A DNA stretch of 64,000 nucleotides, taken from the sequence record ON540300.1. One strand, 5' to 3'. Every line of letters starts with the position of its first letter. Position 1 is the stretch's first letter. Shown piece by piece: positions 1,731 through 62,846 of the stretch. Origin of the DNA: Escherichia phage ECOH1. Under the pieces are notes generated by a model. The model made no database searches. It worked only from the letters and a program-made list of their open reading frames with translations, and was not told the origin of the DNA. The translations under genes were made by a program, and so were the position numbers.

Positions 1731-3332
1731 ATGGACTTAAATGCTGTTAAGCAGAAGCGAGTGGAAGATGTTAGGAAAGTCCTAGCTGGAGAGTTGGGGC
1801 TTTCTGATGAAGTAAAAGAAATTATCAAATCATTCGGTAAAGACCCCTCTAAATTCCTTCCAACTCAAATTCTGACTTTATTAAGATACACACCAGACCA
1901 AGTTAGACTTATCTTCAAATTGATGACTGATAAGAACTATGTAGCCCCTCAGCCGGGTTCTCAAGAGGTCTTTTTAAATACTAATGCTGACTTGGTTCTC
2001 TATGGTGGTGCTGCGGGTGCTGGTAAGACTGCTGCATTGTTGATGGATTCTTTAAGATTTATTGAAGACCCTAACTATAATGCTGTGTATTTCCGTCGAA
2101 ACACGACACAGTTACAAGGTGGTTTATGGCCTGCTGCAAAGAAACTATTTGGTAAGTTTGGTGGGGTTCCTCACGAGCAGAAGATGACTATCACATTCCC
2201 TTCTGGGGCCACTATCAAGTTTACCTACCTAGAACTTGAAAAGCACGCTGAAGGTCATCAGGGTATTGAATACTCAGCTATTTACTTTGACGAAGGTACG
2301 CACTTCTCTGCTTCACAGATTTCATACCTACAGACTCGTCTACGTTCTGGGGCTGAAGGTGATTCATACATGAAGATTTCTATGAACCCAGACAGAGACC
2401 ATTTTATTTACGATTGGGTAGAGCCATTCTTAGATGAAGAAGGTTACCCAGACCCTGAAAAGTGTGGTCGTATTCGTTGGTATGTAATGAATGATGGTGT
2501 TATGGTTTCTGATTGGGAGAGAGACAAGATTCTTGAAATGTTTCCTCTTGAGATTCCTCAAACATATACATTCATCTCTGGTACGATTGATGATAACCCA
2601 ATTCTTGACTTCTTAGAACCTAAATATCGTGGTAAGTTGGAAAACAACACCCCTGTAAACGTTGCAAGACTTCGTTTCGGTAACTGGAAGGCTCGTGCAG
2701 AAGGTTCAAACTATTGGCAAAGACAATGGTGTGAAATTGTTGATTCACTTCCAGAAGATGTATTCGATGTCAGAGCATGGGACTTAGCAGCAACTTTACC
2801 ATCTGAGATTAACCCTAATCCAGACTGGACAGCAGGTGTTAAGATGGGTAAATCTAAAAAAGACGGTTGCTATTATATCATTGATGTAGTAAGATTTAGA
2901 GATAGACCCTCTGGAGTCGAAACACAAATTAATTTGACTGCTGAAAGTGACGGTAAGCGAACTGGTATTTTTATCCCTCAAGACCCAGGCGCTGCTGGTA
3001 AATCCTACGCAACATCCCTCATCAGGAAACTTGCCGAGAAAGGTTATCGAGCAAGGGCTAAACCAACAAATAAAGATAAAGTTACCCGATTTGCGGGGTT
3101 TTCTGCTGCTTCTGAAGCTGGACTTGTAAAAGTCTTGAGAGGTAGTTGGAACGAAGCTTACTTCCAAGAACTTGAAGGTTTTTGTGGTGATGGTAAAACT
3201 AAAGATGACCAAGTGGATGCTACCAGTGATGCTTTCAACAGTCTTAACGAAGTTAAATTATTCAAGCCACCATCAATGGGTGCTCACACAGACTTAGTGA
3301 GAGGAAACCCATATGAGGGGCTTAGACGTTGA
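1731..3332 (+). CDS. terL: terminase large subunit
   Basis: Walker A-like GGAAGAGKT near N-terminus, ~530 aa, position at head of structural module; start moved to ATG 1731 with RBS ggaggtg (track start 1716 is TTG). Confidence 0.85.
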   Translation: MDLNAVKQKRVEDVRKVLAGELGLSDEVKEIIKSFGKDPSKFLPTQILTLLRYTPDQVRLIFKLMTDKNYVAPQPGSQEVFLNTNADLVLYGGAAGAGKTAALLMDSLRFIEDPNYNAVYFRRNTTQLQGGLWPAAKKLFGKFGGVPHEQKMTITFPSGATIKFTYLELEKHAEGHQGIEYSAIYFDEGTHFSASQISYLQTRLRSGAEGDSYMKISMNPDRDHFIYDWVEPFLDEEGYPDPEKCGRIRWYVMNDGVMVSDWERDKILEMFPLEIPQTYTFISGTIDDNPILDFLEPKYRGKLENNTPVNVARLRFGNWKARAEGSNYWQRQWCEIVDSLPEDVFDVRAWDLAATLPSEINPNPDWTAGVKMGKSKKDGCYYIIDVVRFRDRPSGVETQINLTAESDGKRTGIFIPQDPGAAGKSYATSLIRKLAEKGYRARAKPTNKDKVTRFAGFSAASEAGLVKVLRGSWNEAYFQELEGFCGDGKTKDDQVDATSDAFNSLNEVKLFKPPSMGAHTDLVRGNPYEGLRR

Positions 3333-12273: not shown

Positions 12274-12284
12274 TAAATCCTATA

Positions 12285-22157: not shown

Positions 22158-22203
22158 TTTCTTTACAGGGGCTATAAAGCCCCTTTTAAGAGGAAAATTC
22201 ATA

Positions 22204-24753
22204 ATGGCAGATTACAAATTGAGTCAATTAAACTCAATCGACACAATTCGTTCAGAAGACCTATTGCACATCAGAGTTAAGAAAAGACCTGAAATGTTGG
22301 GTGACGAAGACCGTAGAATGACCTATCAAGACTTCTTAGCTTCCTTCAAACTAGAAAGGTTTGTTCAGATTGCTGGGAGTACTATGGTTGGGGATTTAGG
22401 TATTGTCAAGTTACTTTACGGTGGTAAGGCAGTATTTGACCCAACAGGCTCTTCTGAGATTACTATTGGGGATATTTTAAAGACTTTTAAAATTAACTCA
22501 AATGGGCTTAAACTCACTATTGCAGATGCCACAAGGTCGGCAACTGTTTATCATACTTTGAATAAACCAAGCCCTAATGAACTTGGTATGAGAACTAATG
22601 AAGAGAATGATGCAAGATATGCAAGGCTTGCTGTTACAAACACATTCTCTGGAACTCAGAACATTCAAGGTGATGCTAACTTACTTCGTCTTAGAAACCA
22701 GAATGCAAATAATGCGCAATATATTGAGGGTGTGAACTTAGATGGTTCAGCTAGATGGTGGGTTGGTATTGGTAGTAATGGCTCTGATGAAGTAAAACTG
22801 TACAATAACAAATACAACTCAGCTTTGACTATTGCAAGCAATATCTCTGTTAATAAGTCTTTAGCAATCACTGGACAAGTTCAACCTTCAGATTTCTCTA
22901 ACTTAGATGCTAGATACTTCACTCAGACAGTTGCTAATCAGAGATTTGCACAGTTAGCTGGCAATAATACTTTTACAGGTGCTAACACATTTAGGACTAT
23001 GAGTGTTATTTCAAATGCTGCTGCTATCACACTGCAATGTGCATCAGCAAACGAATCCCTGTATCTACTTGCAAAAGATTATGAAGGTGGAAACTTATGG
23101 TATCTTGGTAAAGGTAGTTCAGGTGCTGGTGTAACTATCTACAACTATACCACTGACACCTCTTTGGTCTTAGATGCTGCTGGAGTATCAGCAAATAAAA
23201 ATGTCAGAATCACTGGACAAGTTCAACCTTCAGATTGGGCTAACATTGACTCTAGATATATTCCGGCAGCAACATTAAGTACAATTGCAAGAACTAATGC
23301 AAGGAATACTTTTAATGGTGTACAGACAGTTGTTACGGATAATGAAGGTCTGATTGTTAAAAACTCTACTCAGAATAGACCATTATATATTCGTGGTGTG
23401 GACACTACTAATGTATCAAGATGGTGGATTGGTGTTGGTGGTGCTGATACGAATGATGTTACCCTAAATAACAGTTATTCTGGAACCCAATTGGTTCTCG
23501 GAAATACAACATCATACATTAACAAAACATTGACTATTGCTGGACAAGTTCAACCTTCAGATTTCTCTAACTTAGATGCTAGATACTTTACGCAAAGTGC
23601 TAGTGATAGCAGATACCTAAGAATCAGAAGTACTAGTTTTAATTTAGGAAACGGTGAAAAGTGGGCTAAAATCGCTACTGTTGTAATGCCACAATCAACA
23701 TCTACGGCAGTCATTGAGGTTTTTGGAGGTGCTGGTTTTAATGCGAATAACCCATACCAAGCAGGTAAGTGTGAAATTGTTTTACGAACGTCAAATAATA
23801 ATACAAAGGATTTAAATGCTGTAGCTTGGAGAACAGCAGATAATGCCCTCATCACGGATATTGGTTATATTAACACTTCTGGTGACACTTATGATATTTA
23901 CTGTAAGGTTGGTGGCTACCAAAATTCTACGGTATCTAGGGTTCAATCTTCTAGTAATGCAAGTGTACAGTTGTTTGAAGTCCCGCAAACATTTGATGAT
24001 GCTCCACAAGGTATTGTGAAGGGTACACTTGCAAGGTACTACACAAGTTTGCAAAAACCAACCCCTTCAGATATTGGTGCATACACTAAAGCAGAGACTG
24101 ACCAGAAAATTGCAGAAGCGATTAGTGACTCTACAGACCTGAATAAAATCTATCCAGTAGGTATTGTGACGTGGTTTAACAGCAATGTTAACCCTAATAC
24201 AGCACTTCCTGGGTTAACTTGGACGTACCTGAACAATGGTGTTGGCAGAACTATTAGAATTGCAGCAGCAAATGGTTCAGATGTTGCTACAACTGGTGGT
24301 TCAGATTCTGTAACGTTATCTGTTGGTAACTTACCTTCACACACGCACAGTTTCTCTGCTACCACTTCGACGTTTGATTATGGCACTAAGCACACAGATG
24401 GTCAGGGTGCTCACGACCATGATAGAGGTAATATGGAAATTCATGGTGATTTTGGTTTCTTCAGGAGTGACACATCAAGCTTCTACACTGCTAGTGGGTC
24501 TTTTGCTATCTCAGGTTCACAAGCATCTAGAGGATACACAGGTAATAACTTCACTTACGGTACTCCTGTTAATTTCTATGCCTCTAGAACTTGGACAGGT
24601 AGAACAAGTTGGGTAGGTGCTCATACACATGGTGTAGGTATTGGTGCTCATAACCATACGGTAAGTGGTAACACTGGTGGTACAGGTTCTGGTTCAGCAT
24701 TTAGTGTTACTAACCAGTTCTACAAGTTAATGGCTTGGGTAAGAACTGCTTAA
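22204..24753 (+). CDS. large tail fibre protein with internal repeats and C-terminal His-x-His domain
   Basis: 849 aa from ATG 22204 (RBS aagagga); three copies of ITGQVQPSD(F/W)SN(L/I)D(A/S)RY; C-terminal SHTHSFSATTSTFDYGTK...GAHTHGVGIGAHNHTV...MAWVRTA. Confidence 0.6.
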   Translation: MADYKLSQLNSIDTIRSEDLLHIRVKKRPEMLGDEDRRMTYQDFLASFKLERFVQIAGSTMVGDLGIVKLLYGGKAVFDPTGSSEITIGDILKTFKINSNGLKLTIADATRSATVYHTLNKPSPNELGMRTNEENDARYARLAVTNTFSGTQNIQGDANLLRLRNQNANNAQYIEGVNLDGSARWWVGIGSNGSDEVKLYNNKYNSALTIASNISVNKSLAITGQVQPSDFSNLDARYFTQTVANQRFAQLAGNNTFTGANTFRTMSVISNAAAITLQCASANESLYLLAKDYEGGNLWYLGKGSSGAGVTIYNYTTDTSLVLDAAGVSANKNVRITGQVQPSDWANIDSRYIPAATLSTIARTNARNTFNGVQTVVTDNEGLIVKNSTQNRPLYIRGVDTTNVSRWWIGVGGADTNDVTLNNSYSGTQLVLGNTTSYINKTLTIAGQVQPSDFSNLDARYFTQSASDSRYLRIRSTSFNLGNGEKWAKIATVVMPQSTSTAVIEVFGGAGFNANNPYQAGKCEIVLRTSNNNTKDLNAVAWRTADNALITDIGYINTSGDTYDIYCKVGGYQNSTVSRVQSSSNASVQLFEVPQTFDDAPQGIVKGTLARYYTSLQKPTPSDIGAYTKAETDQKIAEAISDSTDLNKIYPVGIVTWFNSNVNPNTALPGLTWTYLNNGVGRTIRIAAANGSDVATTGGSDSVTLSVGNLPSHTHSFSATTSTFDYGTKHTDGQGAHDHDRGNMEIHGDFGFFRSDTSSFYTASGSFAISGSQASRGYTGNNFTYGTPVNFYASRTWTGRTSWVGAHTHGVGIGAHNHTVSGNTGGTGSGSAFSVTNQFYKLMAWVRTA

Positions 24754-25405: not shown

Positions 25406-25432
25406 GGCTCCTTTTTACGGGAGCCTTTTTTG
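25406..25432 (+). terminator. intrinsic terminator between convergent gene blocks
   Basis: ggctcc(t)-loop-(g)ggagcc hairpin followed by T6; lies between + ORF ending 25398 and - ORF ending 25435. Confidence 0.65.
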
Positions 25433-28028: not shown

Positions 28029-28358
28029 TTAATCTGCCAACCTTAAATTAAAATTAACACCAAATTTTTCACATACTTCCAACATAAACTCAAGAGAGAC
28101 ATTACCAGTGAGGTTGATTATGTTGGATACACGAGCTTGAGAGATACCACAAATCTTAGCAACTTGCTCTTGAGAAAGACCTCTGGATTTAATCTCTCTC
28201 TTAAAACGATGTGCAACGAAGTCTCTCATTTCGTCTACATCCATTGGACAAATATAACTCTCCATTTCAGCTTCTCTGTCAGCCTCCCAATCATCTTGTG
28301 GAGCATAAGGGTCAAAAACCTCATTCATCTTTCTTCTTCCGTTTACGTGAAGCATCAA
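28029..28358 (-). CDS. helix-turn-helix DNA-binding protein (XRE-like)
   Basis: HTH-like segment LSQEQVAKICGISQARVSNIINLTGN. Confidence 0.55.
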   Translation of the reverse strand: MMLHVNGRRKMNEVFDPYAPQDDWEADREAEMESYICPMDVDEMRDFVAHRFKREIKSRGLSQEQVAKICGISQARVSNIINLTGNVSLEFMLEVCEKFGVNFNLRLAD

Positions 28359-28918: not shown

Positions 28919-29478
28919 AATGACCTCAAAGTTATATTAAATTTTGTATTACATTGAGTATAAAAATAAGCTATAACACCTGATTTGTCAACAGATTTTA
29001 TAGCTTATTTGGCAGATTTTTTTTATAAGGCTACTGCCATCCTTCCATACCAAACCATACCAGACATAGCCATACCCGACCGTACCTCGCCTCACAACAC
29101 TTAAAAATCCTCTTAGAAGACTCTTAAGTGATGTAATCGAATTTTAATGTAGCTCCGATTAACTACCCATACCTCACCTCATCCAACCATACCATGCCTT
29201 ACCAGACCGCACCTTACCTTATTAAAAGACCCTATTTAAAGACCTTTTAAAAAGGTGAGTCTCATTTTAAATGTAGCTGAGACTAACTACCCATACTGTA
29301 CCGCACCTGACCCGACCTGACCAGACCTAACATTACCGTGCCACACCGTACCGAACAGAACATTGCCATACCTCGCATCACTTAAAAACCCTTTTAAAAG
29401 ACTCTTAAGTGATGCTGGTGAGTACCCGTCGGTTTATGCTGCTCAGTATACTCACCAAATTTTCTATGTCAACAACTT
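28919..29478. repeat. 560-bp non-coding region with composite direct repeats, CCATACC-like heptamer tracts and hairpins
   Basis: Two copies of cacttaaaaa(t/c)cc...aagactcttaagtgatg (about 29098 and 29380), two copies of ttttaa(a)tgtagct..aactacccatac (about 29142 and 29263), more than 12 CC(A/G)TACC-like units, strongly G-poor top strand. Confidence 0.7.
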
Positions 29479-31983: not shown

Positions 31984-32034
31984 AAGCCCTCCTATATAAG
32001 ATATTGTATAAGGTACTCTTCCCTGAGCACCTTG

Positions 32035-32568
32035 TCAACTTAGTTTTGCAAACTCTCCGTGGAGTTTCACAGCAGCTTCACAGTAAGCTTTATGGGCTTC
32101 TTCAGGTGTGTCATGGTGACCTAAAAACATCTTCTTACCTTTATAACTTATCTGTGCGACCCACTTACCAGACTTCTTCTTAAGGCTTACACCCTTGTAC
32201 CCAGATTTATTGGTGGCTAGTTTACCTTTATTCCAAGCACTTTGGAAGTCATCTGCTTCCCTTAAGTTTGCAATCCTGTTGTCAAGAGAGTCTCCGTTGA
32301 TATGGTCAATGATACCTTTTGGCATCTTGCCATATACATAAAGCCATGCGAGTCTGTGTGCTTTATGTGCTTTCTTGTCAAAATAGATACTAATCTGTTT
32401 ATGACCAGTTGAATCAGTCTGGATATTACCTGCCACCTTTCCTGCATAATTACTGTTAAAAACACTAACAGCTCTTGATTTACCTTCTCTACGAAGCCAA
32501 GTAAAGACCCCTGTTTCGGGGTCATAGTGCAGCAGCTCCTTTAAACGTTTTTGTAAAATTAAATCCAT
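32035..32568 (-). CDS. HNH endonuclease with AP2-type DNA-binding domain (free-standing homing-endonuclease-like)
   Basis: HNH-like IIDHINGDSLDNRIANL followed by AP2-like GYKGVSLKKKSGKWVAQISYKGKKMFLGHHDTPEEAHKAY. Confidence 0.65.
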   Translation of the reverse strand: MDLILQKRLKELLHYDPETGVFTWLRREGKSRAVSVFNSNYAGKVAGNIQTDSTGHKQISIYFDKKAHKAHRLAWLYVYGKMPKGIIDHINGDSLDNRIANLREADDFQSAWNKGKLATNKSGYKGVSLKKKSGKWVAQISYKGKKMFLGHHDTPEEAHKAYCEAAVKLHGEFAKLS

Positions 32569-39757: not shown

Positions 39758-39829
39758 TAGTTATAAAAGAGAGGGGTTCATACCCTTCTTTGAAGAAAAA
39801 AGTTTAAATAAATTTCAGGAAGAGTGTTT

Positions 39830-39858
39830 GACAAAGATTGATAGGTTCTATAGAATGC
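39830..39858 (+). promoter_or_regulatory. sigma70-like promoter TTGACA-N17-TAGAAT
   Basis: TTGACA 39830-39835, TAGAAT 39853-39858. Confidence 0.5.
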
Positions 39859-40009
39859 TCCTCATGAAATGTGATGGGGAGGTTGCTATAAAAGAAGATT
39901 CCTACCAAAGCACGATTACAGTCATCATTACACTGCCTCAGCATAATATTAGTTGGCTGTTTATAATTAAAGAAAATGTGTTTGAATATCAAGTATATCG
40001 GAGAATACC

Positions 40010-41150: not shown

Positions 41151-42191
41151 ATGGAGAAGTACACATTAACAAAACTTCCCGATTCAGTTACACATGTTTT
41201 TATTGACTCTGACAGTATTGCCTATAAAGGTGCTTGTGTAGTTGAGAAAGCAAAGTATAAATATGTCAATAAACTCACAGCAGAAGAGTCTGAGCCATTT
41301 GATAATGCGAAAGATGCTGCAAGATGGTTAGCAGACCAGAGAATCCTTGTGGAAGAGCTTGGCCTGACATTTGATGAAGATGAATGGGAAAGACAGACTT
41401 GGAAAGAAGCTAAGAGTGAAAAAGAAGCTATCATGGCTACTCAACAGGTGCTTCAGGAATGGCTTAAGGTTGTTGGTAAAGAGAGAACTTGGGTAGGTTA
41501 CTTAACAGAGAAAGGTGTGCATAAACACAAAGACATTAAAGGTCTTGAGCACCAATATCAAGGTAACCGCAAAGATGCTGTCACACCAACACACTTAGTT
41601 GCTTGTCGTGAGTATCTTCTGTCAAGACCAGAGTTCAAGCTGATTCTTGATGGATTTGAAGCTGACTCTATCGTAATTGCTAAAGCTGAAAAGATGGGTA
41701 AAAAGGCTGCCTTAATGAGTATTGATAAAGACCTTCGACAAGCTGAAGGTACTTACTGCATTGACATGACCTATGAAAAATCACCTTTAATTTTTATTGC
41801 TGATAACAATGTTGGTGAAATCTGGGATTGTCCAATAAAATCGACACCAAAAGCTAAGAAGACAGTTGGGGTAGGTTTTAAATTTCTTTGTTACCAAGCT
41901 GTGGCTGGTGATAATGCTGATAATTATTTTGGTTTAAAGGGCGTTGGTAAGGCTACTGTAATGAAAGCCCTTGAAGGGAAAACAACTTACAAAGAGTGTC
42001 TTGATGCTATCTATGAACTTTATGCTAAGAAAGAGTCATACACTTATGTCTCGTGGGATGGTCAAACAATTACCAGAACACCTTTAGAGTTAATGCAGCA
42101 ACACTTTTTCTTAGCTTATCAGGAAAGAAACAAGAAAGATGATTTCACTTTTAAGAAATATAATTGGGAGCCTTGTATGAATGAAGATTAA
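41151..42191 (+). CDS. 5'-3' exonuclease / flap endonuclease (RNase H-like)
   Basis: Motif LILDGFEADSIV resembling the GxEADD motif of 5'-3' exonucleases; replication-module context. Confidence 0.55.
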   Translation: MEKYTLTKLPDSVTHVFIDSDSIAYKGACVVEKAKYKYVNKLTAEESEPFDNAKDAARWLADQRILVEELGLTFDEDEWERQTWKEAKSEKEAIMATQQVLQEWLKVVGKERTWVGYLTEKGVHKHKDIKGLEHQYQGNRKDAVTPTHLVACREYLLSRPEFKLILDGFEADSIVIAKAEKMGKKAALMSIDKDLRQAEGTYCIDMTYEKSPLIFIADNNVGEIWDCPIKSTPKAKKTVGVGFKFLCYQAVAGDNADNYFGLKGVGKATVMKALEGKTTYKECLDAIYELYAKKESYTYVSWDGQTITRTPLELMQQHFFLAYQERNKKDDFTFKKYNWEPCMNED

Positions 42192-48216: not shown

Positions 48217-48415
48217 ACGCATTTGGGAAGGTTTGGTTGTTGATGCACCAGCTATTGTGATTGGTATGCTTATTGTTAACCTATTTACTGACTTTGAACA
48301 AGGTTCATTGTTTGGAGCCATGTTACTATGGGTTATCTTTGAAATATTAGAGATACAGTTAGGTATCACTGAAAAACTAAGAAAACTCTTTGTGAAGTTT
48401 TCTAAAAAGATTTAA
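48209..48415 (+). CDS. small membrane protein
   Basis: 68-aa hydrophobic ORF. Confidence 0.4.
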   Translation: MLKRIWEGLVVDAPAIVIGMLIVNLFTDFEQGSLFGAMLLWVIFEILEIQLGITEKLRKLFVKFSKKI

Positions 48416-48422
48416 AATGAAA

Positions 48423-48444
48423 GGGTCTCTTCGGAGACCTTTTT
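48423..48444 (+). terminator. intrinsic terminator
   Basis: ggtctc-ttcg-gagacc followed by T5. Confidence 0.6.
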
Positions 48445-48463
48445 AGCATGTAAAGGGGCAATA

Positions 48464-49660
48464 ATGAACAAAGTACAGATTATTAAAAAGAGTGGCTCAC
48501 TCGAAGAACCTGATATCAAAAAAGTTTTAGCAGCAGTCACAAAGTCAGCTAATAGGGTTGGTTATAAAGAGCTTCCACCAGATGTTACTCAAGCTCTTGA
48601 GTCAGCATTTATGAGGATTCTGGTAAAATCTACTAAGCAGAATAATTTACTCGTTTCAGTAAATGATATTCACAGTATTGTTGAGGGTGCTTTGGCAGAA
48701 GTCAATCACGAGATTTATGAGTCTTACTCAACATATAGAAATTACCGTAAAGAAGTTGCTCAAAATTGGGATGAACTTTACCAGAAGACCAAAGATACAC
48801 TCTTCTTAGGTGACAGAGAGAATGCTAACTTTGACAGCAGTTTAATTTCTACAAAAGGTTCAATTATTCGTGGTTATCTGACTAAAGAAATCTTTAAACA
48901 GTACCATTTAACACCAGAGGAACTTGAAGCCATTGAAAAAGGGTTTATCTATATCCATGATTTAAGAGACCTAATTTTTGGTGGTATCAACTGTTGCCTG
49001 TTTGACATTGGTAAAGTCCTGAAAGGTGGCTTTGAAATGTCTGGCATCGAATATTGTGAACCAAAGTCTGTACTGTCAGCCTTACAGGTTATTGGTGATG
49101 TAGTTCTTTCAGCAACTGCACAGCAATTTGGTGGCTTTACTTTAGCAGAGATTGATAAGGTACTTGTACCGTATGCTAAGAAGTCTCTACGCTATCATGC
49201 TGAGAAAGCAGCATCTTATGGTATTCCTAAAGAACATTACCACAATTATGTCATGGAGCAGCTACAGATTGAATTAACTCAAGGCTTCCAGTCACTAGAG
49301 ATGAAACTGAATACTGTACCATGTAGTCGTGGGGATTTTGCATTCACAACTTTGACATTCGGGTTACTTGACTCAGATATGTCCAATGAAGATAACCGAC
49401 TGCAATACATGATTGCAAGTACTCTCCTAGATGTTCGTATGAATGGACAAGGCAAGAGCAAGAAACCTGTTGTATTCCCTAAACTGGTTTATATCTATGA
49501 CCAGAAGAGACATAATGAGAATATCTGTCAAGGCCAACTGTACAGCAAAGCTATTGAGTGTTGCTCTAAAGCGATGTATCCAGATTTTTTAAGTGTATCT
49601 GGTCATGGTGCTGTAGCAGAGGCTTTTGAGCGTTCTGGTAAGGTAATTTCACCGATGGGT
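48464..49660 (+). CDS. nrdD: anaerobic ribonucleotide reductase NrdD, exon 1
   Basis: ORF ends at a TAA that lies at the start of the intron; proposed exon end ...VISPMG. Confidence 0.7.
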
Positions 49661-49975
49661 TAACAAGCTCTATAGCTCATCTAAAACGTGCCTAAACAGG
49701 GAAACTCTACAGGTGTAGACAATCCTGTGCTAAATGATGTACGATGTAAGAAACTATATAACATAGGAGTCTTACATGCCAAATAACTTCGAACATGAAT
49801 TTGAATACATCTAAATGCCGAACGACTAACCGTGATGAATGTAGCGGTGTAGGGTCAAGCGACTCGAAATGGTACGCTACTTAGAAATAAGTAGAAGATA
49901 TAGTCTGGACTTACTGGCGACAGTAAGCAGCTTGAATAAAGCGGGTAAGCTTAGCGAACTTACCTGAACAACAAG
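49661..49975 (+). mobile_element. group I self-splicing intron (IA2-like core), ORF-less, interrupting nrdD
   Basis: 315 nt (multiple of 3); core elements ctaaacagggaaactctacaggtgtagacaatcctgtgctaaat, aaatgccgaacgactaaccg, gtagggtcaagcgactcgaaa, agatatagtctgg, terminal ctgaacaacaag ending in G; exon 1 ends in U; these match group I core elements of T4 td-type introns as recalled from memory. Confidence 0.7.
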
Positions 49976-50923
49976 TGTAGAGCATTTTTATCACCATACC
50001 ATAACGAATATGGTGAAGAGTTTTATGTAGGTCGTGCAAACATTGGTGCTGTATCATTGAACTTACCAATGATTTACCAGTATTCTAAAGAGAATGGTTT
50101 AGATTTCTGGAAAGAGCTTGATAAGTACCTAGAGATGATTCGTAGTTTCCATAAGAAACGCTATGAAATGATTGCCAATATGCCAGCAAGTTCTAACCCT
50201 CTTGCATTTACACAAGGTGGTCTGTACAAAGGAACTAAGAAGCCTACTGACAGGGTTGGTTGGGATATTGTGAAGTCCTTCACAGCTTCTTTTGGGGTTA
50301 CTGCGCTTGATGAGCTATCTGTTCTTGCTGAAGGTAAACGACTTCATGAAGTTGGAAGCTGTAGTTTTGCATACGATGTTCTGGAATACATCAACATGAA
50401 AACTGAAGAGTTTAAAAATGAAGATGGCTTCTTATATGCAGTTTATGGCACTCCAGCAGAATCACTTTGTGGAACTCAGCTAAAACAGTTCAGAGATATG
50501 TTTGGTGTTATCAAAGGTGTTTCTGATAAGGAATACTTTACAAACAGTTTCCATATGAATGTTGCAGCAGATATTACACCATTTGAGAAGCAGGACTTAG
50601 AAGAACCTTTCTTCCATATCTGTAGAGGTGGTAGAATCCAGTATGTCAGAGTAGCTAACCCAGAAAACTTACCAGCACTTAAAAGTTGTATTACAAGAGG
50701 GATGTTGAAAGGTTTCTATCAGGGACTTAACTTTGACCTAGCAATCTGTGAACATTGTGGTAACAGACCAAAGGCTGATGTTGAAGAATGTGAGGTTTGC
50801 CATTCACACGATATCTCTGTGATTAACAGGGTGTGCGGGTACTTGTCATTCACAAAAATTAAAGGTCAGTCTCGAATGAATGACGCTAAGATGGCAGAAA
50901 TTAAGGATAGGGTTTCTATGTAA
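49976..50923 (+). CDS. nrdD: anaerobic ribonucleotide reductase NrdD, exon 2
   Basis: Same frame as exon 1; begins CRAFLSPYHNEYG; contains CxxC zinc-ribbon cysteines and glycyl-radical motif RVCGYL near C-terminus. Confidence 0.75.
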   Translation, partial: CRAFLSPYHNEYGEEFYVGRANIGAVSLNLPMIYQYSKENGLDFWKELDKYLEMIRSFHKKRYEMIANMPASSNPLAFTQGGLYKGTKKPTDRVGWDIVKSFTASFGVTALDELSVLAEGKRLHEVGSCSFAYDVLEYINMKTEEFKNEDGFLYAVYGTPAESLCGTQLKQFRDMFGVIKGVSDKEYFTNSFHMNVAADITPFEKQDLEEPFFHICRGGRIQYVRVANPENLPALKSCITRGMLKGFYQGLNFDLAICEHCGNRPKADVEECEVCHSHDISVINRVCGYLSFTKIKGQSRMNDAKMAEIKDRVSM

Positions 50924-53003: not shown

Positions 53004-53324
53004 ATGAGCAAAGTTTATAACACTCGTAAATTACAGATTTTCGTACTGTGCCAGTTTATGGCTAAAGAATATAACTTCTACTATTGTGGTACAGGTTTTA
53101 TTAGCGATGATGATGGCTCATACCTCCCATTTAAAGAAGCTGTGAAACTCTTTAATGAAGAGAAAAGCTCTAAGAAAGATATTGAAAAGGTTAAGCTAAC
53201 CTACAGCAAGAAAGATAAGAAGATTATCTGCCTAGATAACTTTGTGAAAGTTACTGGAGAAGCAAAAGAGTTTATGGATGAGAGTGAAATCTCATTCACA
53301 AGCATCTTGAAAGTAGCTCAGTAA
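53004..53324 (+). CDS. hypothetical protein
   Basis: 106-aa ORF. Confidence 0.4.
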   Translation: MSKVYNTRKLQIFVLCQFMAKEYNFYYCGTGFISDDDGSYLPFKEAVKLFNEEKSSKKDIEKVKLTYSKKDKKIICLDNFVKVTGEAKEFMDESEISFTSILKVAQ

Positions 53325-53337
53325 ACAGATACTATAA

Positions 53338-53361
53338 GGGGACTGTAAAGGTTCCCTTTTT
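53338..53361 (+). terminator. intrinsic terminator
   Basis: ggggac-tgtaaag-gttccc followed by T5. Confidence 0.55.
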
Positions 53362-53891: not shown

Positions 53892-54162
53892 AGAAAAGTG
53901 GGAGATTTTACCATTAGTCAGTGAAGGCGGTAATGGTTGTGAAATGTACATGATACGTGGTCATGTTCCAGAGCCAATTGCACTTGAGATGGTAAATAAT
54001 TATACAGATGGTTCCTGCAAAGACTTAGGAGAACCAACTGTCAAGCAGCAATGGGTAAAGCCTGTGCCAGATAGTACAGGAAACTGTAGTGTACTTTATC
54101 ACGTTGTAGACCCTGTAAAATGCAAGTCTGCAATGGCAGTAACTAACGTAACTTTTGATTGA
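53884..54162 (+). CDS. hypothetical protein
   Basis: 92-aa ORF. Confidence 0.4.
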   Translation: MAKEKWEILPLVSEGGNGCEMYMIRGHVPEPIALEMVNNYTDGSCKDLGEPTVKQQWVKPVPDSTGNCSVLYHVVDPVKCKSAMAVTNVTFD

Positions 54163-55055
54163 GAGAGAAAATTATGAAAACATCTATACGTGTTACAGTT
54201 CATTCACCAACTAAAGGAACTCATGAAGAAGAGTTTAACATCATCCAATTTCCTTCTGGTGAGATTGGTGGACACTTTTCACCAGAGTTTGTTGATTTTA
54301 CTGCTTATGCAGCATCATCTATCAACAATGTGATTATGATTGTAAAAGGTTATGATAAGGACACATTGTTTGCTGTGGCACTTGCTAAAGAAGCAATTGA
54401 TGATTTAGTACCTCATAAGTTTGCTATGAAGACTGCTATCTTTTACTATTTGCCAAATGCACGTTACGACCGTCACATGTTTAAAGGTGATGCAGCAGCT
54501 TTGAAAGTGTTTGCACAACAGGTTAATGCAATGGGTTTTGATGCAGTCTGTGCAGTTGACCCTCACAGCTATGTACCAGATAACCTGTTTAACTGCTTCC
54601 AGAGTATTCCTCAAAAGGAAATTGCAGTCCACTATGCAAATGACCCACGCATTGATTTCTTGGTAGCCCCAGATGCAGGTGCAGCTAAGAAGACTGAAGA
54701 GACTGCTAAAGAGGTGGATAAACCATACATCACAATGTCTAAAGTACGTAACCTTAAGACTGGTGAAATTACTGGTATGCGAATCCTTGATGATGTTGAT
54801 TTGACCGATAAAACTGTCATGATTCTCGATGATATCTGTGATGGTGGTCGAACCTTCATAGAAGCAGCTAAACATCTTCGTGAAGCAGGTGCAAAACGTG
54901 TGGAACTCTATGTAACTCATGGCATTTTCTCTAAAGGTGTTGAAAACTTACTTGACAATGGTATTGACCATATCTACACTACAAACTCTTTAGGGGAAGC
55001 TAAAGACCGTGGCTTAACACATTATGCCCAAGTTACTGTAATTACCATTGATTGA
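54159..55055 (+). CDS. ribose-phosphate pyrophosphokinase (Prs) family protein; candidate ADPR-pyrophosphate synthetase of a NAD+ reconstitution pair
   Basis: Prs-like motifs DPHSYVP and PRPP-binding loop VMILDDICDGGRTF, GAKRV...THGIFS; similarity to E. coli Prs judged from recalled sequence. Confidence 0.75.
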   Translation: MREKIMKTSIRVTVHSPTKGTHEEEFNIIQFPSGEIGGHFSPEFVDFTAYAASSINNVIMIVKGYDKDTLFAVALAKEAIDDLVPHKFAMKTAIFYYLPNARYDRHMFKGDAAALKVFAQQVNAMGFDAVCAVDPHSYVPDNLFNCFQSIPQKEIAVHYANDPRIDFLVAPDAGAAKKTEETAKEVDKPYITMSKVRNLKTGEITGMRILDDVDLTDKTVMILDDICDGGRTFIEAAKHLREAGAKRVELYVTHGIFSKGVENLLDNGIDHIYTTNSLGEAKDRGLTHYAQVTVITID

Positions 55056-55102
55056 AACTTTATAGGGGGTTTCAAAGCCCCATTTTGAGAGAGATTAAAA
55101 AG

Positions 55103-56884
55103 ATGACTAAATCACTTTATGCAGTACCAGCAGGTTTAAACGCGGATGCTTACAAATCTGGCCATATTTATCAGTATCCTAGTGCAACAGAGTACCTAAT
55201 GTTCAACCTGACACCACGTAGTGACAAATGGTTTAACAGCCCTTTAGCAATTGACGGTGTAGTGGCTTTTGGTATTCAACGTTTTGTTAAAGATTACCTG
55301 ATAGACCACTGGAACGCCACCTTCTTTGAACGTGACAAAAAAGAAGCAATTGACGAAATCTTAGAAGTCATGAACGGTGTTCTGGGTAAAGATGCTATTG
55401 GTCGAGAACATTGGGAAGCACTCCATGACTTAGGTTATCTACCAGTTGAAGTATACGCTGTAGAAGAAGGCACAGTTGTTCCTATGCGTGTACCAATGAT
55501 TGTCTTCCAGAACACTGTCTCAGGTTTCCATTGGGTAGCGGGGTATCTGGAAGATGCTTTCTCTGCTGAGATTTGGAAGGCTTGTACCATTGCAACTATT
55601 GCATTGCACTACAAACGTATCTGTAAGAAGTGGTCTGACCTTACTTGTGACAACGACTTGCATTTGCCTTATCAGTGCCATGACTTTGCTATGCGTGGTA
55701 TGTCCGGCTTTACCGATGACGCATTTAACGCTGTAGGCCACTTAACCAGCTTTAAAGGAACTGATAGCTTCCCTGCTGTGTATACAGCTAAACGCATCTA
55801 TGGACAGTCCTACCCAATCTCTGATATTGGTAGCTCTGTACCAGCCACTGAACACTCTGTAATGTGTGCAAACATTGCTTGGGAAGGTGGTAGTGAGTTG
55901 ATTGAAGAAGAAAGACGCTTTAAAGGTGAGTTACAAACCTTCCGTCGTTTCTTAACAGAAACTTACCCAACTGGTATTGCAAGTGTTGTTTCAGACACTT
56001 ATAACTTCTGGAGAACTGTATCAGTCATATTACCAGAACTCCGTAAAGAGATTATGGAACGTAATGGCAAACTAGTAATTCGTCCTGATTCTGGAGACCC
56101 TGTACATATTGTCACAGGATACAAAGCAATCCATTTAGAGTGTGCTAAAAAGGCTTATTACGAACACCTAAGTAAGCTGGAAGCCAGCGACACAATGCTG
56201 AATGCTGTTCTGAACATGAAGCTTGAAAACATCAATTATGGTATTGCTGGATGGCTACTGTCAGAAGGTTACGAAATGGTTGTTGACAGAGAAGACTTTG
56301 AAGTTGCTGATACAGTGCTGTTGAAAAATGCTTATATGGTTGGTTCTGCAAACGTTGTAACACGTCCTGTAGCGGAGATTGATGGAGCTATCAAGACACT
56401 GTATAACATCTTTGGAGGAACTATCAACTCTAAAGGTTTTAAAGTACTGGATGAGCATATCGGGCTTATTTATGGTGACTCTATCACGTTGGAACGTGCA
56501 AACGAAATACTGAAGCGTTTGTATGAAATGGGTTTTGCAAGCTCTAACGTAGTATTTGGTGTAGGTTCTTACACTTACCAGTACATGACTCGTGACACTT
56601 TTGCATTTGCTGTCAAAGCAACTCTTGCAAGTATTGGTGGTAAAGAGATTATGCTTGCAAAAGACCCTAAAACAGATAGTGGTGTTAAGAAGTCTGCTTT
56701 TGGTGGTGTAGCACCTATGTGGGATGGTGAAAATCTTAAAGCTGTAGATGGCTATGGATTCCAGAGCTTTGCAGATGCACTTGAACACCCAGCTTGTGCT
56801 TTACGTCTAGTCTTTAGCGACTCTGAGCAGTTCGGTTACACAACTCTTGGTGATATTCGAAATAATATTGACAAGCAGCTTTAA
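55103..56884 (+). CDS. nicotinamide phosphoribosyltransferase (NAMPT/NadV) family protein
   Basis: Recalled NAMPT signature blocks: LNADAYKSGHIYQYP, LPVEVYAVEEGTVVP, HDFAMRGMSG, FKGTDSFPAVY, SVPATEHSVM, VVSDTYNFW, IRPDSGDPV; start at ATG 55103 with RBS gagagag. Confidence 0.8.
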   Translation: MTKSLYAVPAGLNADAYKSGHIYQYPSATEYLMFNLTPRSDKWFNSPLAIDGVVAFGIQRFVKDYLIDHWNATFFERDKKEAIDEILEVMNGVLGKDAIGREHWEALHDLGYLPVEVYAVEEGTVVPMRVPMIVFQNTVSGFHWVAGYLEDAFSAEIWKACTIATIALHYKRICKKWSDLTCDNDLHLPYQCHDFAMRGMSGFTDDAFNAVGHLTSFKGTDSFPAVYTAKRIYGQSYPISDIGSSVPATEHSVMCANIAWEGGSELIEEERRFKGELQTFRRFLTETYPTGIASVVSDTYNFWRTVSVILPELRKEIMERNGKLVIRPDSGDPVHIVTGYKAIHLECAKKAYYEHLSKLEASDTMLNAVLNMKLENINYGIAGWLLSEGYEMVVDREDFEVADTVLLKNAYMVGSANVVTRPVAEIDGAIKTLYNIFGGTINSKGFKVLDEHIGLIYGDSITLERANEILKRLYEMGFASSNVVFGVGSYTYQYMTRDTFAFAVKATLASIGGKEIMLAKDPKTDSGVKKSAFGGVAPMWDGENLKAVDGYGFQSFADALEHPACALRLVFSDSEQFGYTTLGDIRNNIDKQL

Positions 56885-56899
56885 AAGTATATGATAAGA

Positions 56900-56920
56900 G
56901 GCTCCTACGGGAGCCTTTTT
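56900..56920 (+). terminator. intrinsic terminator
   Basis: ggctcc-tacg-ggagcc followed by T5. Confidence 0.6.
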
Positions 56921-56937: not shown

Positions 56938-57273
56938 ATGAAAATCAAAGAGATGAACATCAACATTGTCTTAGAAGAGCGTTGGGAGAACATCAAGAAG
57001 CCTGAAAATGGTCATAAGTTCCTCAATAAAATCTTAGTAGCAGCTAAAGAAGAACTGACTGGCAAGATTGCAGCAGCAATCACAATAAAGGTCTGTGTAA
57101 AAGGTCTTCCAGACAATCACCAATTTGCACTTGACGAGTTTAAAGAGAGCTTCTACAATCCAAACAAACAGATGCTTGAAAGTAACTTTGCAGTGTCTAC
57201 AAGTATCGTCCATGACAGAAGCTTTATCCTTTACAAGAATATGAGAGGTGAGTCATGCAAGCATATTGGATAG
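56938..57273 (+). CDS. hypothetical protein
   Basis: 111-aa ORF. Confidence 0.4.
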   Translation: MKIKEMNINIVLEERWENIKKPENGHKFLNKILVAAKEELTGKIAAAITIKVCVKGLPDNHQFALDEFKESFYNPNKQMLESNFAVSTSIVHDRSFILYKNMRGESCKHIG

Positions 57274-57459: not shown

Positions 57460-59826
57460 ATGCGCATGGTAAATGACCACGCAGAAGTGATTAAGAGTTC
57501 AACTTCTTTAGAGACGTCTCAAGCACAGATTACAATGACACCTGAGATGTTCAGCCTTTTGAGTTCTGGTGTATATACCTTTAAAGAAAGGGCAGTGATT
57601 CGTGAACTGTCATGTAACGCAGTAGATGCTCAGAAAGAAGCTGGAAAAGAGAACATCCCGTTCCATGTGCATTTACCTACTCGTTTTGAGCCTTACTTTG
57701 AAGTTCGTGATTTTGGAACTGGATTGACTCATGATAAAGTTATGAGTTTGTACCTAAACTACGGGGCTTCTACGAAGAATGACTCTAATGACTACATTGG
57801 TGCAATGGGTATCGGCTCAAAATCCCCATTTGCAATTGCTCAGTCATTCACAGTATCCAGCTATGTTGACGGTGTTGTTAACAAGTACTCTGTTTACCTT
57901 GAGAATGGTATCCCTCAAGTAACTAAGCTAACCACCAACCCAACGAATGAACCTAATGGTTTAGCTGTACGTGTAGCAGTTGCTGACCATCGTATTTCAA
58001 AGTTCTTTGAAGAGGCTGGTAATGTATACTCATACTTTGCTGTAAAACCAGAAAGTAATATTGAGTATGACGATGTATTAGCAGATATGAACGTCATTGC
58101 CCGTGAAGAAGGTGTCTATGATGCCATGATTCATAAGCAAAGCTGGCGTTCTAGTGGTAACAGGACAGAGTTTAATGTGGTGATGGGTAACATTGCCTAC
58201 CCTGTTAATATGGAAGCATTACTTGGTGATGATTTCTTCAAAGTATTGCCAGAATTTTTCCGTAGGAGCGTAGACCTTGTAAACATCTACATGCCTATTG
58301 GTTCAGTTGCTATTGCAGCTTCTCGTGAAGCATTGCAGATGAATGACACGACAAAAAATGTTATCATTGAGGCTACTAAAAAGATAACTGAAGCAATTAC
58401 AAAGGATGTTATCAAGAAAGTTAATAGCCAACCTACACTCATGGATGCTGCACAGGCTTATGCTGAGTTACGTTTGAACTCACGAGAGATGTTTAATGCT
58501 GTGTGTCCAAAGCTAGAGTGGGGAGGCGTTAAGCTTGATTCTCTGGAAGAAGAATTACTAAACATTCGTCGTGGAATTATCTACGCAGAAGACGGCTCAG
58601 TTGTCTATGAACGCGATGGTAAAGGTAATATTAAGGTTGATAGGAACGGAAACAACATCCCTAAAGTAGATTATCTTTATAATCCAGTTGCTTATGTTAA
58701 GTTTAACTCTTTAGAGAGTAAGATTCGTGCAACAGCACTTTCCTACACTCAAGAGGCGAGTATGTTCAATATCTTTGGTGCAATGCGCAAAAGCCAAATT
58801 GAACAGTTTTTGTTTGTTATCAATGACCGTCGCAATAAAAATGGTACTGAGAAGACTGTAGGACGCAATCAGATTCTGCGTGGTGCATGTCGAGACTATG
58901 CCAGTGAGTCAAGTCTGTTTCACAGATACAATGGTATTGTCTTTGTATTCTCGACTGAAAAAGAGTTAGACGACCTAATCAATCTGCACAAACTTGATAA
59001 AAGCTTGTTAAAGATTGTGAAGATGTCTGATAAGGAACACCATTATCAGCGTAAAGAAGCTGTAAGAGGTGTTGTAAAACTTTGGAAAGCTGTTCCAGCA
59101 GAAGGTGTAGCTTCCTATAAAGAGGTTTCAGAGGACTTTGATACAATTGAAGAACCTCAGTTTTATATTAAGGCAGTAGGCGACACAGTTGATGGCGAAT
59201 GTTTTTGCTCATCTCCAGAAGATGTAGCTAAGTCAGTTGCCAATGTCATTGGAAAGACAGTATATGTTTTCCGAAAAGCAAATTGGAAAAAGATACCAGA
59301 AGACTGGATTGAAGTAGATGAGAAGCTCTTGAACGACAGCTTAACTGATGTTCATTGGATTAATCATAACAGATATATGACACGTATCTATATGAATGGT
59401 GTCCTCGACCTTACAAGCAGTTGGATTATTGCCAGAAACTTTACGTTCAATAACAGAAAGATTTCTCGTGGTTATTGTTATTCACGAGATACAAACAAAA
59501 CTATCTTCTTAGAAGGTAATGAAGATGCTGTTGAGGCAATGTTTGGTAAAATCCAATACGTTGCTGCACCGTTTGCATACACTTACACTATTAGTAGGTT
59601 GCAAACTTTGAAAGATTGCCTTGACAATGATACAAAGCTGTACAAGAAAATTAAGAAAGCTGGTGACCGTATGGTCATCAAGGTGACAAACTATCTTTCA
59701 AAAAGAAAACAAGAAAACTTCTTGCTTTCTCATTTAGATTGGAATAAAGTGTCACCTATTGAAGTGAGTAAGTTCTTAGGCTTTGATGTGAAGTGTGTTC
59801 CAGAAGGAACTACAATTTACGATTAA
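57460..59826 (+). CDS. rIIA: rIIA-like protein with N-terminal GHKL/histidine-kinase-like ATPase fold
   Basis: N-terminal motifs ELSCNAVDA and VRDFGTGL...GAMGIGSKS; 788 aa; followed by a second large ORF. Confidence 0.5.
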   Translation: MRMVNDHAEVIKSSTSLETSQAQITMTPEMFSLLSSGVYTFKERAVIRELSCNAVDAQKEAGKENIPFHVHLPTRFEPYFEVRDFGTGLTHDKVMSLYLNYGASTKNDSNDYIGAMGIGSKSPFAIAQSFTVSSYVDGVVNKYSVYLENGIPQVTKLTTNPTNEPNGLAVRVAVADHRISKFFEEAGNVYSYFAVKPESNIEYDDVLADMNVIAREEGVYDAMIHKQSWRSSGNRTEFNVVMGNIAYPVNMEALLGDDFFKVLPEFFRRSVDLVNIYMPIGSVAIAASREALQMNDTTKNVIIEATKKITEAITKDVIKKVNSQPTLMDAAQAYAELRLNSREMFNAVCPKLEWGGVKLDSLEEELLNIRRGIIYAEDGSVVYERDGKGNIKVDRNGNNIPKVDYLYNPVAYVKFNSLESKIRATALSYTQEASMFNIFGAMRKSQIEQFLFVINDRRNKNGTEKTVGRNQILRGACRDYASESSLFHRYNGIVFVFSTEKELDDLINLHKLDKSLLKIVKMSDKEHHYQRKEAVRGVVKLWKAVPAEGVASYKEVSEDFDTIEEPQFYIKAVGDTVDGECFCSSPEDVAKSVANVIGKTVYVFRKANWKKIPEDWIEVDEKLLNDSLTDVHWINHNRYMTRIYMNGVLDLTSSWIIARNFTFNNRKISRGYCYSRDTNKTIFLEGNEDAVEAMFGKIQYVAAPFAYTYTISRLQTLKDCLDNDTKLYKKIKKAGDRMVIKVTNYLSKRKQENFLLSHLDWNKVSPIEVSKFLGFDVKCVPEGTTIYD

Positions 59827-59831
59827 AGTGT

Positions 59832-59861
59832 TTGACAAGGGGCTTCAAAGCCCCTTAGAAT
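59832..59861 (+). promoter_or_regulatory. promoter-like TTGACA-(GC palindrome)-TAGAAT element
   Basis: TTGACA 59832-59837, palindrome ggggcttcaaagcccc 59839-59854, TAGAAT 59856-59861. Confidence 0.45.
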
Positions 59862-59905
59862 AGCCTTACAAAATGATTTATTAACTAACAAGAGAGAGTA
59901 ATAAG

Positions 59906-61015
59906 ATGACTACTAAAACTAAAGCACAGATTGACGCAGAAATTTACAAACTGGTTAAAGAAGGCAAGCTGACTAAAACAGCTATTGCACAGAAGTTCAA
60001 TACTTCAACCCGTTCAGTTGGTCGTGCTGTAGAGCGTCATGAAGCAACCTTAAAGGGTAAGAAAAAGACAGCTTCGACACCAGCTACGAAGACTTTGAAG
60101 CAAGTTGCTAAGACCTTTAAGAAGAAAGCTGGCAAACCAGTTGAAAAGGTCGTTAAAGACACTGTACAGAAAGTTCCAGTAAATAAACTGCACGAAGCTA
60201 TGCAGAAAGATGACAAGATTGAGTACATGATTACTGGCGACTCTGTAATTATGACTTACGGTTCAGAATCTGAAATTGTTGAGTCTACTCATCCGAACTA
60301 TCAAGAGATTGTAGTCCATGTTGTGAAAGGTGAGTTCAAGAAAGCTTTCGAACTGATGAACATTCGTAAATCTATCGAAAACTTCACTCAGGGTGCTATC
60401 ACAATCAAAGGTGACAAGCTATTCTACGGTGCTGTTGAAATGCGTTCTACTCTGGTTGACCGTATCCTTCACATGATGAAGACTGGTGATAAAGGTTTTG
60501 AACGACTTGTAATGTTCTTCGAAAAACTGATGGAAAACCCATCTAAAGACTCTGTAGAACAACTTTGGGGATTCGTATCTCACCTTGATGTTGAAATTGA
60601 TGAAGAAGGCTACATCATTGGTTGGAAGAAAGTCTCTACTCGTGAAGGCAAGCTGGTTGACTCTCACACCTACAAAGTACCTAATGATTTAGGTAACATT
60701 GTAGAAATGCCACGTTGGATGGTTGATAACAACCGTAACGTAACTTGCTCTCAGGGTCTTCATGTTGGTGCTTGGGATTATGTTCGTTGCTTCTCAGGTG
60801 ATACAATCCTGAAGGTTCGTGTCCATCCACGAGATGTTGTATCTGTTCCGACTGATTACAACGATATGAAGATGCGTTCATCCCGTTATGAAGTTGCAGC
60901 AATCGTTGATAATCAACGTAAAGTGTTGAAAGCATGGGACGGTAAGACTGAAGCTTTGCATGTCATCGTCGGTACTGCTGGTGAACTCATCTCCCAACGT
61001 AAACGTGAAATCTAA
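59906..61015 (+). CDS. rIIB-like protein (putative)
   Basis: 369-aa ORF immediately downstream of rIIA-like gene; assignment by context only. Confidence 0.3.
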   Translation: MTTKTKAQIDAEIYKLVKEGKLTKTAIAQKFNTSTRSVGRAVERHEATLKGKKKTASTPATKTLKQVAKTFKKKAGKPVEKVVKDTVQKVPVNKLHEAMQKDDKIEYMITGDSVIMTYGSESEIVESTHPNYQEIVVHVVKGEFKKAFELMNIRKSIENFTQGAITIKGDKLFYGAVEMRSTLVDRILHMMKTGDKGFERLVMFFEKLMENPSKDSVEQLWGFVSHLDVEIDEEGYIIGWKKVSTREGKLVDSHTYKVPNDLGNIVEMPRWMVDNNRNVTCSQGLHVGAWDYVRCFSGDTILKVRVHPRDVVSVPTDYNDMKMRSSRYEVAAIVDNQRKVLKAWDGKTEALHVIVGTAGELISQRKREI

Positions 61016-62825: not shown

Positions 62826-62846
62826 GGCTCCTTCGGGAGCCTTTTT
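62826..62846 (+). terminator. intrinsic terminator
   Basis: ggctcc-ttcg-ggagcc followed by T5. Confidence 0.6.

Follow-up and report, generated by a model that had tools for sequence, protein, structure and literature searches.

The DNA analysed here (the window, 64,000 nucleotides) has a GC content of about 39%. Its 57–62 kb part shares 97% identity with Escherichia phage vB_EcoM_E9 and matches 276 phage records, mainly from Felixounavirus (Ounavirinae), and judged by these similarities the source phage is a Felix O1-like Felixounavirus. This group comprises the Felix O1-like myoviruses infecting E. coli, Salmonella, and Shigella, which are widely used for typing and biocontrol of Salmonella and E. 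coli. Three intergenic regions of the window carry the palindrome GGGGYT-N4-AGCCCC, and they are referred to below as site 1 (between two tail-fibre genes), site 2 (between prs and the NAMPT gene, nadV), and site 3 (between rIIA and rIIB). The genes and features at these sites are the following.

20982–22157, + strand: gene for a Gp10_C-type fibre protein (Pfam and related records)
22167–22187, + strand: site-1 stem-loop AGGGGCT-ATAA-AGCCCCT with TTTT, a short T run, after it, in the gap between the tail-fibre genes
22204–24753, + strand: gp37-type fibre gene (Pfam and related records)
54159–55055, + strand: Prs gene (Pfam and related records)
55066–55087, + strand: site-2 stem-loop GGGGTT-TCAA-AGCCCC followed by ATTTTG, between prs and the NAMPT gene
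55103–56884, + strand: NAMPT (nadV) gene (Pfam and related records)
57460–59826, + strand: rIIA (97% identity to annotated phage records, Pfam)
59824–59826, + strand: rIIA stop codon TAA; the hairpin starts 11–13 nt further on
59832–59837, + strand: -35 hexamer TTGACA of the rIIB promoter (11/12 sigma70 match; annotated in MZ726792)
59837–59856 (core 59839–59854), + strand: site-3 stem-loop AAGGGGCT-TCAA-AGCCCCTT, filling the 18-nt promoter spacer
59856–59861, + strand: -10 hexamer TAGAAT, whose first T is still paired, as the final base of the extended stem
59866–59870, + strand: predicted start zone of rIIB transcription, about 7 nt past the -10 hexamer by the usual geometry of sigma70 promoters
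59891–59908, + strand: Shine-Dalgarno-like AGAGAGAG and the rIIB ATG (59906), kept in relatives
59906–61015, + strand: rIIB (97% identity to annotated phage records, Pfam)

Anatomy of the three stem-loops

The palindromes are located where the initial annotation of this DNA had placed them: GGGGCTATAAAGCCCC at 22168–22183, GGGGTTTCAAAGCCCC at 55066–55081, and GGGGCTTCAAAGCCCC at 59839–59854; an additional G at 55065 accounts for the 17-letter string that it gave for site 2. Its guesses at the neighbouring genes (two fibre genes of the Gp10_C and gp37 types, Prs and NAMPT, rIIA and rIIB) are borne out by Pfam and by the annotations of related phages. The motif search that it proposed, run on the window, found GGGGYT-N4-AGCCCC exactly three times (at 22168, 55066, and 59839), as against 0.00 matches in 100 shuffles, and the looser pattern GGGG-N8-CCCC also gave three matches with 0.04 expected, so that the frequency of the motif is above chance.

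The distance of the hairpins from the preceding + strand stop codon is nearly uniform. They start 10 nt past it at site 1 (stop codon ending at 22157, next ATG at 22204), 11 nt at site 2 (55055 and 55103), and 11–13 nt at site 3. The canonical terminators of the window, at 12284, 50934, 53336, 56896, 61029, and 62825, are found 10–13 nt past stop codons, and a fourth copy of the hairpin, present in the complete genome of phage ASO1B, begins 11 nt past one. At sites 1 and 2 the stem is followed by TTTT or ATTTT and then by a Shine-Dalgarno sequence, with the ATG 20–21 nt past the stem, and at site 3 by TAGAAT and a 44-nt leader.

The predicted RNA stability of the three sites is -10 to -15 kcal/mol (-13.3 to -14.2 at site 3), and that of the canonical terminators of the window is -12 to -21 kcal/mol; the fold z-scores are modest, -1.8 to -2.9 in 40-nt windows. 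The strands are not equivalent at site 2, where the hairpin reaches -10.3 kcal/mol on the + strand versus -6.3 on the - strand: because it includes a U.G wobble (T.G in DNA), full pairing and good folding are possible only in the + strand RNA. All three sites thus possess one of the two parts of an intrinsic terminator, a GC-rich hairpin of the sense transcript soon after a stop codon.

The second part, a U-rich tract (typically at least 5 U in 8 nt) directly 3' of the stem, is missing from all three. The consensus terminator scan, which demanded at least 5 T among the 8 bases after the stem, calls none of the sites, their tails being TTTTAAGA (site 1), ATTTTGAG (site 2), and TTAGAATA (site 3), and TransTermHP and WebGeSTer did not flag the three hairpins in ASO1B. 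This is why we name them leaky, or attenuator-type; judged by their letters they would be weak terminators at best. Sites 1 and 2 look like stand-alone leaky terminator/attenuator hairpins, and the T run of site 1 is lost in two Mooglevirus-like contigs (L090 and L091). At site 3, where UUAGAAU stands in place of the U-tract, termination is only inferred; A residues further upstream are available for pairing with its two U residues, and intrinsic termination could therefore be weak or absent.

At site 1 (22158–22193, + strand) the minimum-energy fold includes an extra lower helix, in which UUUCUU from the 5' flank pairs with AAGAGG, which serves the downstream fibre gene as its Shine-Dalgarno sequence. 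In this model the helix could partly mask the ribosome-binding site of that gene.

Several other elements of the window were noted in passing. An Rfam scan of the whole window at gathering thresholds found only tRNAs and a group I intron, with no match at the three hairpin sites, for which a known RNA family was rejected on this ground. Six tRNA genes are located at the window start (14–358 and 1114–1283, + strand), upstream of the structural module. The intron (49576–49927, + strand; RF00028, 54.2 bits versus a gathering score of 50) sits between the ORFs 48464–49663 and 50057–50923. In phage ASO1B, nrdD (anaerobic ribonucleotide reductase) is a single uninterrupted CDS of 2145 nt, and the window phage, to judge from its sequence, appears to carry an intron-split nrdD. 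The nrdD gene of T4 is also intron-split. A 560-bp non-coding region (28919–29478) lies upstream of an operon encoding a Cro/C1-type HTH protein (28029–28355). It contains a near-palindrome of about 41 nt twice (29094–29134 and 29375–29415), the roughly 240 nt between the two copies show a CCATACC/YACC pattern with a period of 5 nt, and an 11/12 promoter TTGACA-16-TATACT starts on the - strand at 29472. This region might serve as an iteron-bearing origin, encode a non-coding RNA, or hold several regulator sites.

The predicted rIIB promoter and other promoter/hairpin composites

For comparison we used about 80 related loci from IMG/VR (32 of rIIB, 29 of NAMPT, and 24 of the fibre genes), together with annotated Mooglevirus, Suspvirus, and Kolesnikvirus genomes and the complete ASO1B genome.

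At site 3 the palindrome forms the 18-nt spacer between TTGACA and TAGAAT at 59832–59861, as the initial annotation had it, and the two hexamers represent an 11/12 match to the sigma70 consensus. Matches of at least 11/12 occur eight times in the window versus 2.4 ± 1.3 in first-order Markov simulations, an approximately 3-fold enrichment. Of the 29 IMG/VR loci whose hairpin is GGGGCT/AGCCCC, 28 read TTGACA at -35 and the remaining one TTGACT; TTGACA is likewise found in the annotated genomes of Mooglevirus and Suspvirus. At -10, every Felixounavirus, Mooglevirus, and Suspvirus-like locus has either TAGAAT or TAAAAT, and the spacer measures 18 nt in Felixounavirus and 17 nt in the other genera. 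The leader, from the -10 hexamer to the Shine-Dalgarno sequence, is almost wholly different from genus to genus, the hexamers and the stem remaining as conserved islands. Between rIIA and rIIB of Kolesnikvirus the hexamers are absent and a hairpin is kept, which suggests that the hairpin is the older component. RT-PCR on Felix O1 placed the peak of ORF2 (rIIB) at 10 min and that of ORF1 (rIIA) at 25 min (PMC3185647), which fits separate control of the two genes.

The other two sites do not follow this layout. The TTTACA that the initial annotation pointed out before site 1 is present, but it lacks an acceptable -10 partner: TTTACA-17-TTTAAG at site 1 and TTTATA...TTTTGA at site 2 do not possess the essential A2 and T6 of the -10 hexamer, and we rejected promoters at both sites for this reason. 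No sigma70 match of 9/12 or better was found at either.

Promoter-like hexamers are combined with hairpins elsewhere in the window as follows.

56868–56919, + strand: TTGACA-16-TATGAT (11/12), annotated as a promoter in MZ726792 and abutting a terminator hairpin, AAGAGGCTCC-TACG-GGAGCCTTTT, where the NAMPT gene ends
39828–39881: strong promoter/hairpin composite with TTGACA...TAGAAT (11/12)
53305–53358 and 48390–48445: weak promoter/hairpin composites (9/12)

In these four composites the -10 hexamer directly abuts or overlaps the GC hairpin, and by their geometry the transcripts would begin inside the hairpin and so escape it. The pair TTGACA...TAGAAT is also found at 40167. On the - strand, 32010–32045 holds TTGACA, a 24-nt hairpin (AAGGTGCTC...GAGTACCTT), and TACAAT in series; with 24 nt between its hexamers it exceeds the spacing of a normal sigma70 promoter, unless the hairpin plays no part or the likeness arose by chance.

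Variation of stems and loops among relatives

Within Felixounavirus the nucleotide diversity of the stems is 0.014–0.044, as compared with 0.11–0.18 for third codon positions of the adjacent genes and 0.26–0.39 for the 4-nt loops; at site 3 the stem reaches 0.014 versus 0.109 for third codon positions. This pattern indicates that the stem is under strong purifying selection and that the loop is free, even hypermutable. Among the stem variants compatible with G.U pairing, five types would pair on the sense strand versus one on the antisense strand, and two contigs have a stem mismatch at site 3.

The loops (22174–22177, 55072–55075, and 59845–59848), together with their counterparts in the homologous loci L008–L092, are about twice as diverse as third codon positions, and at every site their variants form reverse-complement pairs: ATAA/TTAT, ATCA/TGAT, and TGAA/TTCA at site 1, TAAA/TTTA and TGAA/TTCA at site 2, and TCAA/TTGA at site 3. 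Since TGAT and ATCA differ at four of four positions, these changes represent minute inversions by replication template switching and not point changes. As far as can be read from the alignments, the loop variants look like recurrent events of this kind. Reverse-complement loop pairs with perfect stems kept, as seen at all three sites, resemble the known template-switch inversions of hairpin loops (PMC8794818) and quasipalindrome mutagenesis (PMC7202029), which account for the mutation of the loop and not for the function of the element.

The stem pairs are essentially invariant in Felixounavirus, Mooglevirus, and Suspvirus, so that classical covariation is uninformative either way and structural support comes from the deeper comparisons only (Kolesnikvirus and L038), in which the hairpins correspond by position, their homology being unproven. 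Kolesnikvirus has the hairpin GGGCTG-GAAA-CAGCCC between rIIA and rIIB, a canonical terminator GGACTC-TTCG-GAGTCC+TTTTATT between its fibre genes, and no hairpin in its 13-bp prs/nadV gap; its other GC hairpins have several unrelated stems. In a contig whose rIIB is 55% identical, rIIA is followed by a different hairpin, GTGGTC-N6-GGCCAC, with the -10 hexamer in its loop. At this depth it is apparently structure and position that are conserved, rather than sequence.

A second terminator stem, GGCTCC/GGAGCC, is also used three times in the window (25406–25425, 56900–56915, and 62826–62841; 0.02 expected by chance) and occurs twice in the Felix O1 terminator table. Its reuse, along with the several unrelated stems of Kolesnikvirus, suggests that the repetition of a stem is a general habit of this phage's terminators and not the mark of a special element. 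We therefore rejected stem reuse as an argument for sequence-specific recognition, the equivalent Kolesnikvirus sites having unrelated stems.

Site 2 can be lost altogether. In at least seven relatives an HNH endonuclease gene lies exactly in the prs/nadV gap (L045, L047, L048, L054, L059, and L060, and ASO1B at 41556–42047 of L007, homologous to 55056–55102 of the window), and the hairpin is gone without replacement. Its absence wherever the HNH gene has been inserted means that site 2 is dispensable.

One more gene of these relatives was noted. In the Kolesnikvirus relative Erwinia phage Panisse, a ProQ-like RNA chaperone is annotated three genes upstream of rIIA (19–480 of L005, record positions 70916–71377). 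Terminator hairpins are among the RNAs that ProQ/FinO proteins bind. In the window, the one ORF examined at a comparable position, 56938–57273, had no Pfam match.

Possible roles of the hairpins and related systems

We consider it likely that the hairpins act in the sense-strand RNA, where they attenuate or terminate the transcripts of the upstream genes or stabilise their 3' ends, and that the site-3 hairpin shares its DNA with a sigma70 promoter whose transcripts begin downstream of the hairpin. The three palindromes would then belong to the phage's ordinary class of intergenic terminators and attenuators. As polymerase leaves the fibre gene, prs, or rIIA, the G4...C4 hairpin would form in the nascent RNA 10–12 nt after the stop codon, and since only four U residues follow it at sites 1 and 2, termination there is probably partial. 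Upstream transcripts that are terminated or processed would carry a protective hairpin at the 3' end, and read-through transcripts would include the next gene, with its ribosome-binding site a few nucleotides past the hairpin. At site 3 the hairpin would be packed into the 17–18-bp spacer of the near-consensus promoter, from which host polymerase would begin rIIB transcripts about 7 nt after the -10 hexamer. With the start downstream of the hairpin, promoter-derived RNA would be free of it and rIIA-derived RNA would be attenuated. The outcome may be a timing of its own for rIIB within minimal space, which is the design of the promoter-early stem-loops (PeSLs) of T4-type phages. Actual termination, promoter firing, and the transcription start site are what we infer from the observed sequence, positions, fold stability, conservation pattern, and parallel architectures; our literature search found no RNA-seq, TSS, Term-seq, or 5'/3' transcript-end data for any Felix O1-like phage, and the CRISPRi-ART paper on SUSP1 contains no transcript-end data.

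The main rival, rather unlikely in our estimation, is that the hairpins act post-transcriptionally only, as barriers to 3'->5' exonucleases, as processing landmarks for differential mRNA stability in polycistronic transcripts, or as modulators of downstream translation; it overlaps partly with a role in termination and attenuation, and the two are not fully exclusive. The short or absent U-tracts would agree with such a role, as would the loss of the site-1 T run in Mooglevirus-like contigs in spite of a conserved stem and the pairing of the site-1 lower helix with a Shine-Dalgarno sequence; moreover, read-through must be frequent because the downstream genes need to be expressed. However, the position and stability class of the hairpins are the same as those of hairpins with full U-tracts, TransTerm called the Felix O1 homologue of site 1 a terminator (PMC3185647), and a PeSL stem-loop of the Gn-loop-Cn type strongly terminated transcription in vivo (PMC2839356, PMC4122927).

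The initial annotation had also suggested a regulator-binding site. In such a case the half-sites GGGGCT and AGCCCC, each of 6 bp and one helical turn apart, would be a DNA operator bound by a dimeric phage regulator, for which the Cro/C1-type HTH protein (28029–28355, - strand; HTH_3, Pfam E = 5e-11) is a candidate, and an operator in the site-3 spacer would repress or time rIIB. The half-sites are identical at three or four sites per genome in three genera, the central 4 bp vary freely, as would be expected of an operator, and the loop inversions keep the DNA palindrome unchanged. We nevertheless hold this to be improbable. Operators of a dimeric HTH protein would be expected to share one half-site and to be located in promoters, but two of the three sites are outside any promoter; every site lies at the offset past a stop codon that is typical of terminators, and no copy is found near the promoter region of the HTH gene itself, where the long palindromes are different. 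The comparative data leave the suggestion unsupported as well, because the corresponding Kolesnikvirus sites have stems unrelated to GGGGCT/AGCCCC and also unlike each other, the stem variants are mostly G.U wobbles of the sense strand, which favours sense RNA, and site 2 is cleanly lost at the HNH insertions in several phages.

We find it equally improbable that a phage factor (such as the Cro/C1-type HTH protein, an RNA chaperone, or an antiterminator) specifically recognises the GGGGCT/AGCCCC stem and switches weak terminators and the rIIB promoter during infection. The idea arises from the fixation of this stem at three to four sites per genome in three genera, in spite of the evidence from Kolesnikvirus that a GC stem of any sequence would do. 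If true, it would supply the mechanism of temporal control and read-through, since passage through the many terminators and the control of timing are stated to be unknown in the Felix O1 genome paper (PMC3185647).

Finally, it is very improbable that the cassettes are mainly substrates of recombination or mobility, a role proposed for PeSLs, offering short homologies for fibre swapping and gene insertion with regulation being secondary: PeSLs do mediate indels and mini-circles in T4-type phages (PMC2839356, PMC4122927), site 1 precedes a highly mosaic fibre gene, site 2 is the exact point of HNH insertion, and the flipping loops show the DNA palindrome to be mutationally active, but arms of six bp give homologous recombination very little length to work with, the hairpin is gone where the HNH gene is inserted and no copies of it flank the insert, which is typical of endonuclease homing, and the mosaic breakpoints are inside the fibre genes. 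The identity over the 200 nt upstream of the site-1 hairpin tracks that over the 200 nt downstream with no change at the hairpin, and we rejected it as a linker for fibre swapping.

The palindromes are real and non-random and represent one strongly constrained stem family; under the preferred reading of sense-strand terminator/attenuator hairpins, they belong to an ordinary phage regulatory architecture without a new mechanism. They predict testable landmarks, namely a separate promoter for rIIB and leaky terminators in the fibre-gene and prs/nadV gaps, which can guide annotation and engineering, for example in the choice of safe insertion points and insulators.

Parts of this architecture have been annotated before. 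Whichard et al. (2010, PMC3185647, Table 2) listed the rho-independent terminator t76 of Felix O1, gggggctgtacagccctcttt, after fibre gene 76, a TransTerm call that was checked with MFOLD. Its position between the tail-fibre genes makes it the homologue of site 1; it has a stem of the same GGGGCT/AGCC family and differs in a G.U wobble, a GTAC loop, and the tail CTCTTTCT. Sites 2 and 3 are not in their terminator table, and the rIIB promoter is not among their listed promoters. The GenBank record MZ726792 (Escherichia phage vB_EcoM_ASO1B) annotates the promoter 2298..2327, which is the same TTGACA-N18-TAGAAT upstream of rIIB, as 'similar to TTGACA(N15-18)TATAAT with 1bp mismatch', that is, by consensus match only; the hairpin in its spacer is unmentioned and the three hairpins are not annotated as terminators.

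The closest known counterpart of site 3 is the PeSL, described in the T4-type phages RB49/phi1, PST/T4, and nt-1/KVP40 (Arbiol et al. 2010, PMC2839356; Comeau et al. 2014, PMC4122927). The RB49/phi1 type combines a Gn-loop-Cn stem-loop with TTGACA-N17-TATAAT; the drop in lacZ expression caused by one PeSL stem-loop was about as large as that caused by the rrnB T1 terminator, and activity of about 13,000 Miller units was obtained from one PeSL promoter (PMC2839356, PMC4122927). Several differences separate the window from these phages. Its host phage belongs to Ounavirinae and is not T4-type, site 3 is situated between the conserved rIIA and rIIB genes and not in a hyperplastic ORFan region, and its activity is predicted, as opposed to that of the assayed T4-type PeSLs. 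Several promoter/hairpin composites occur in the window, those with the stem-loop just past the -10 hexamer (56868 and 39828) corresponding to known PeSL variants, but a stem-loop within the spacer is found in one copy only. The fibre identity profiles give no sign of cassette-mediated shuffling, and neither site 1 nor site 2, the two sites tested, proved to be a crossover point for shuffling or indels. No paper linking PeSLs to Felix O1-like phages was found in the literature searched.

The likeness extends both to the elements and to their order. Site 3 has a near-consensus intergenic sigma70 promoter, TTGACA-18-TAGAAT, conserved in 29 related loci and three genera, with a stable G-tract/C-tract stem-loop between its hexamers, and the stop codon, AT-rich stretch, -35 hexamer, Gn-loop-Cn stem-loop, -10 hexamer, Shine-Dalgarno sequence, and ATG follow one another as in PeSLs; the proposed logic, halting upstream transcription and restarting it in minimal space, is also the same. 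The idea of a dual terminator/promoter, which the initial annotation had raised for the palindrome, is partly supported: the conserved hexamers and stem, the diverged 5' UTR, and the PeSL-like layout make it right for one of the three sites, where it is already paralleled by published and deposited annotations, and sites 1 and 2 lack a credible -10 hexamer. PeSL-style terminator/promoter cassettes thus appear, from their sequence, to be present outside the T4-type phages, and by analogy site 3, though not a proven PeSL, may work like one in another phage subfamily.
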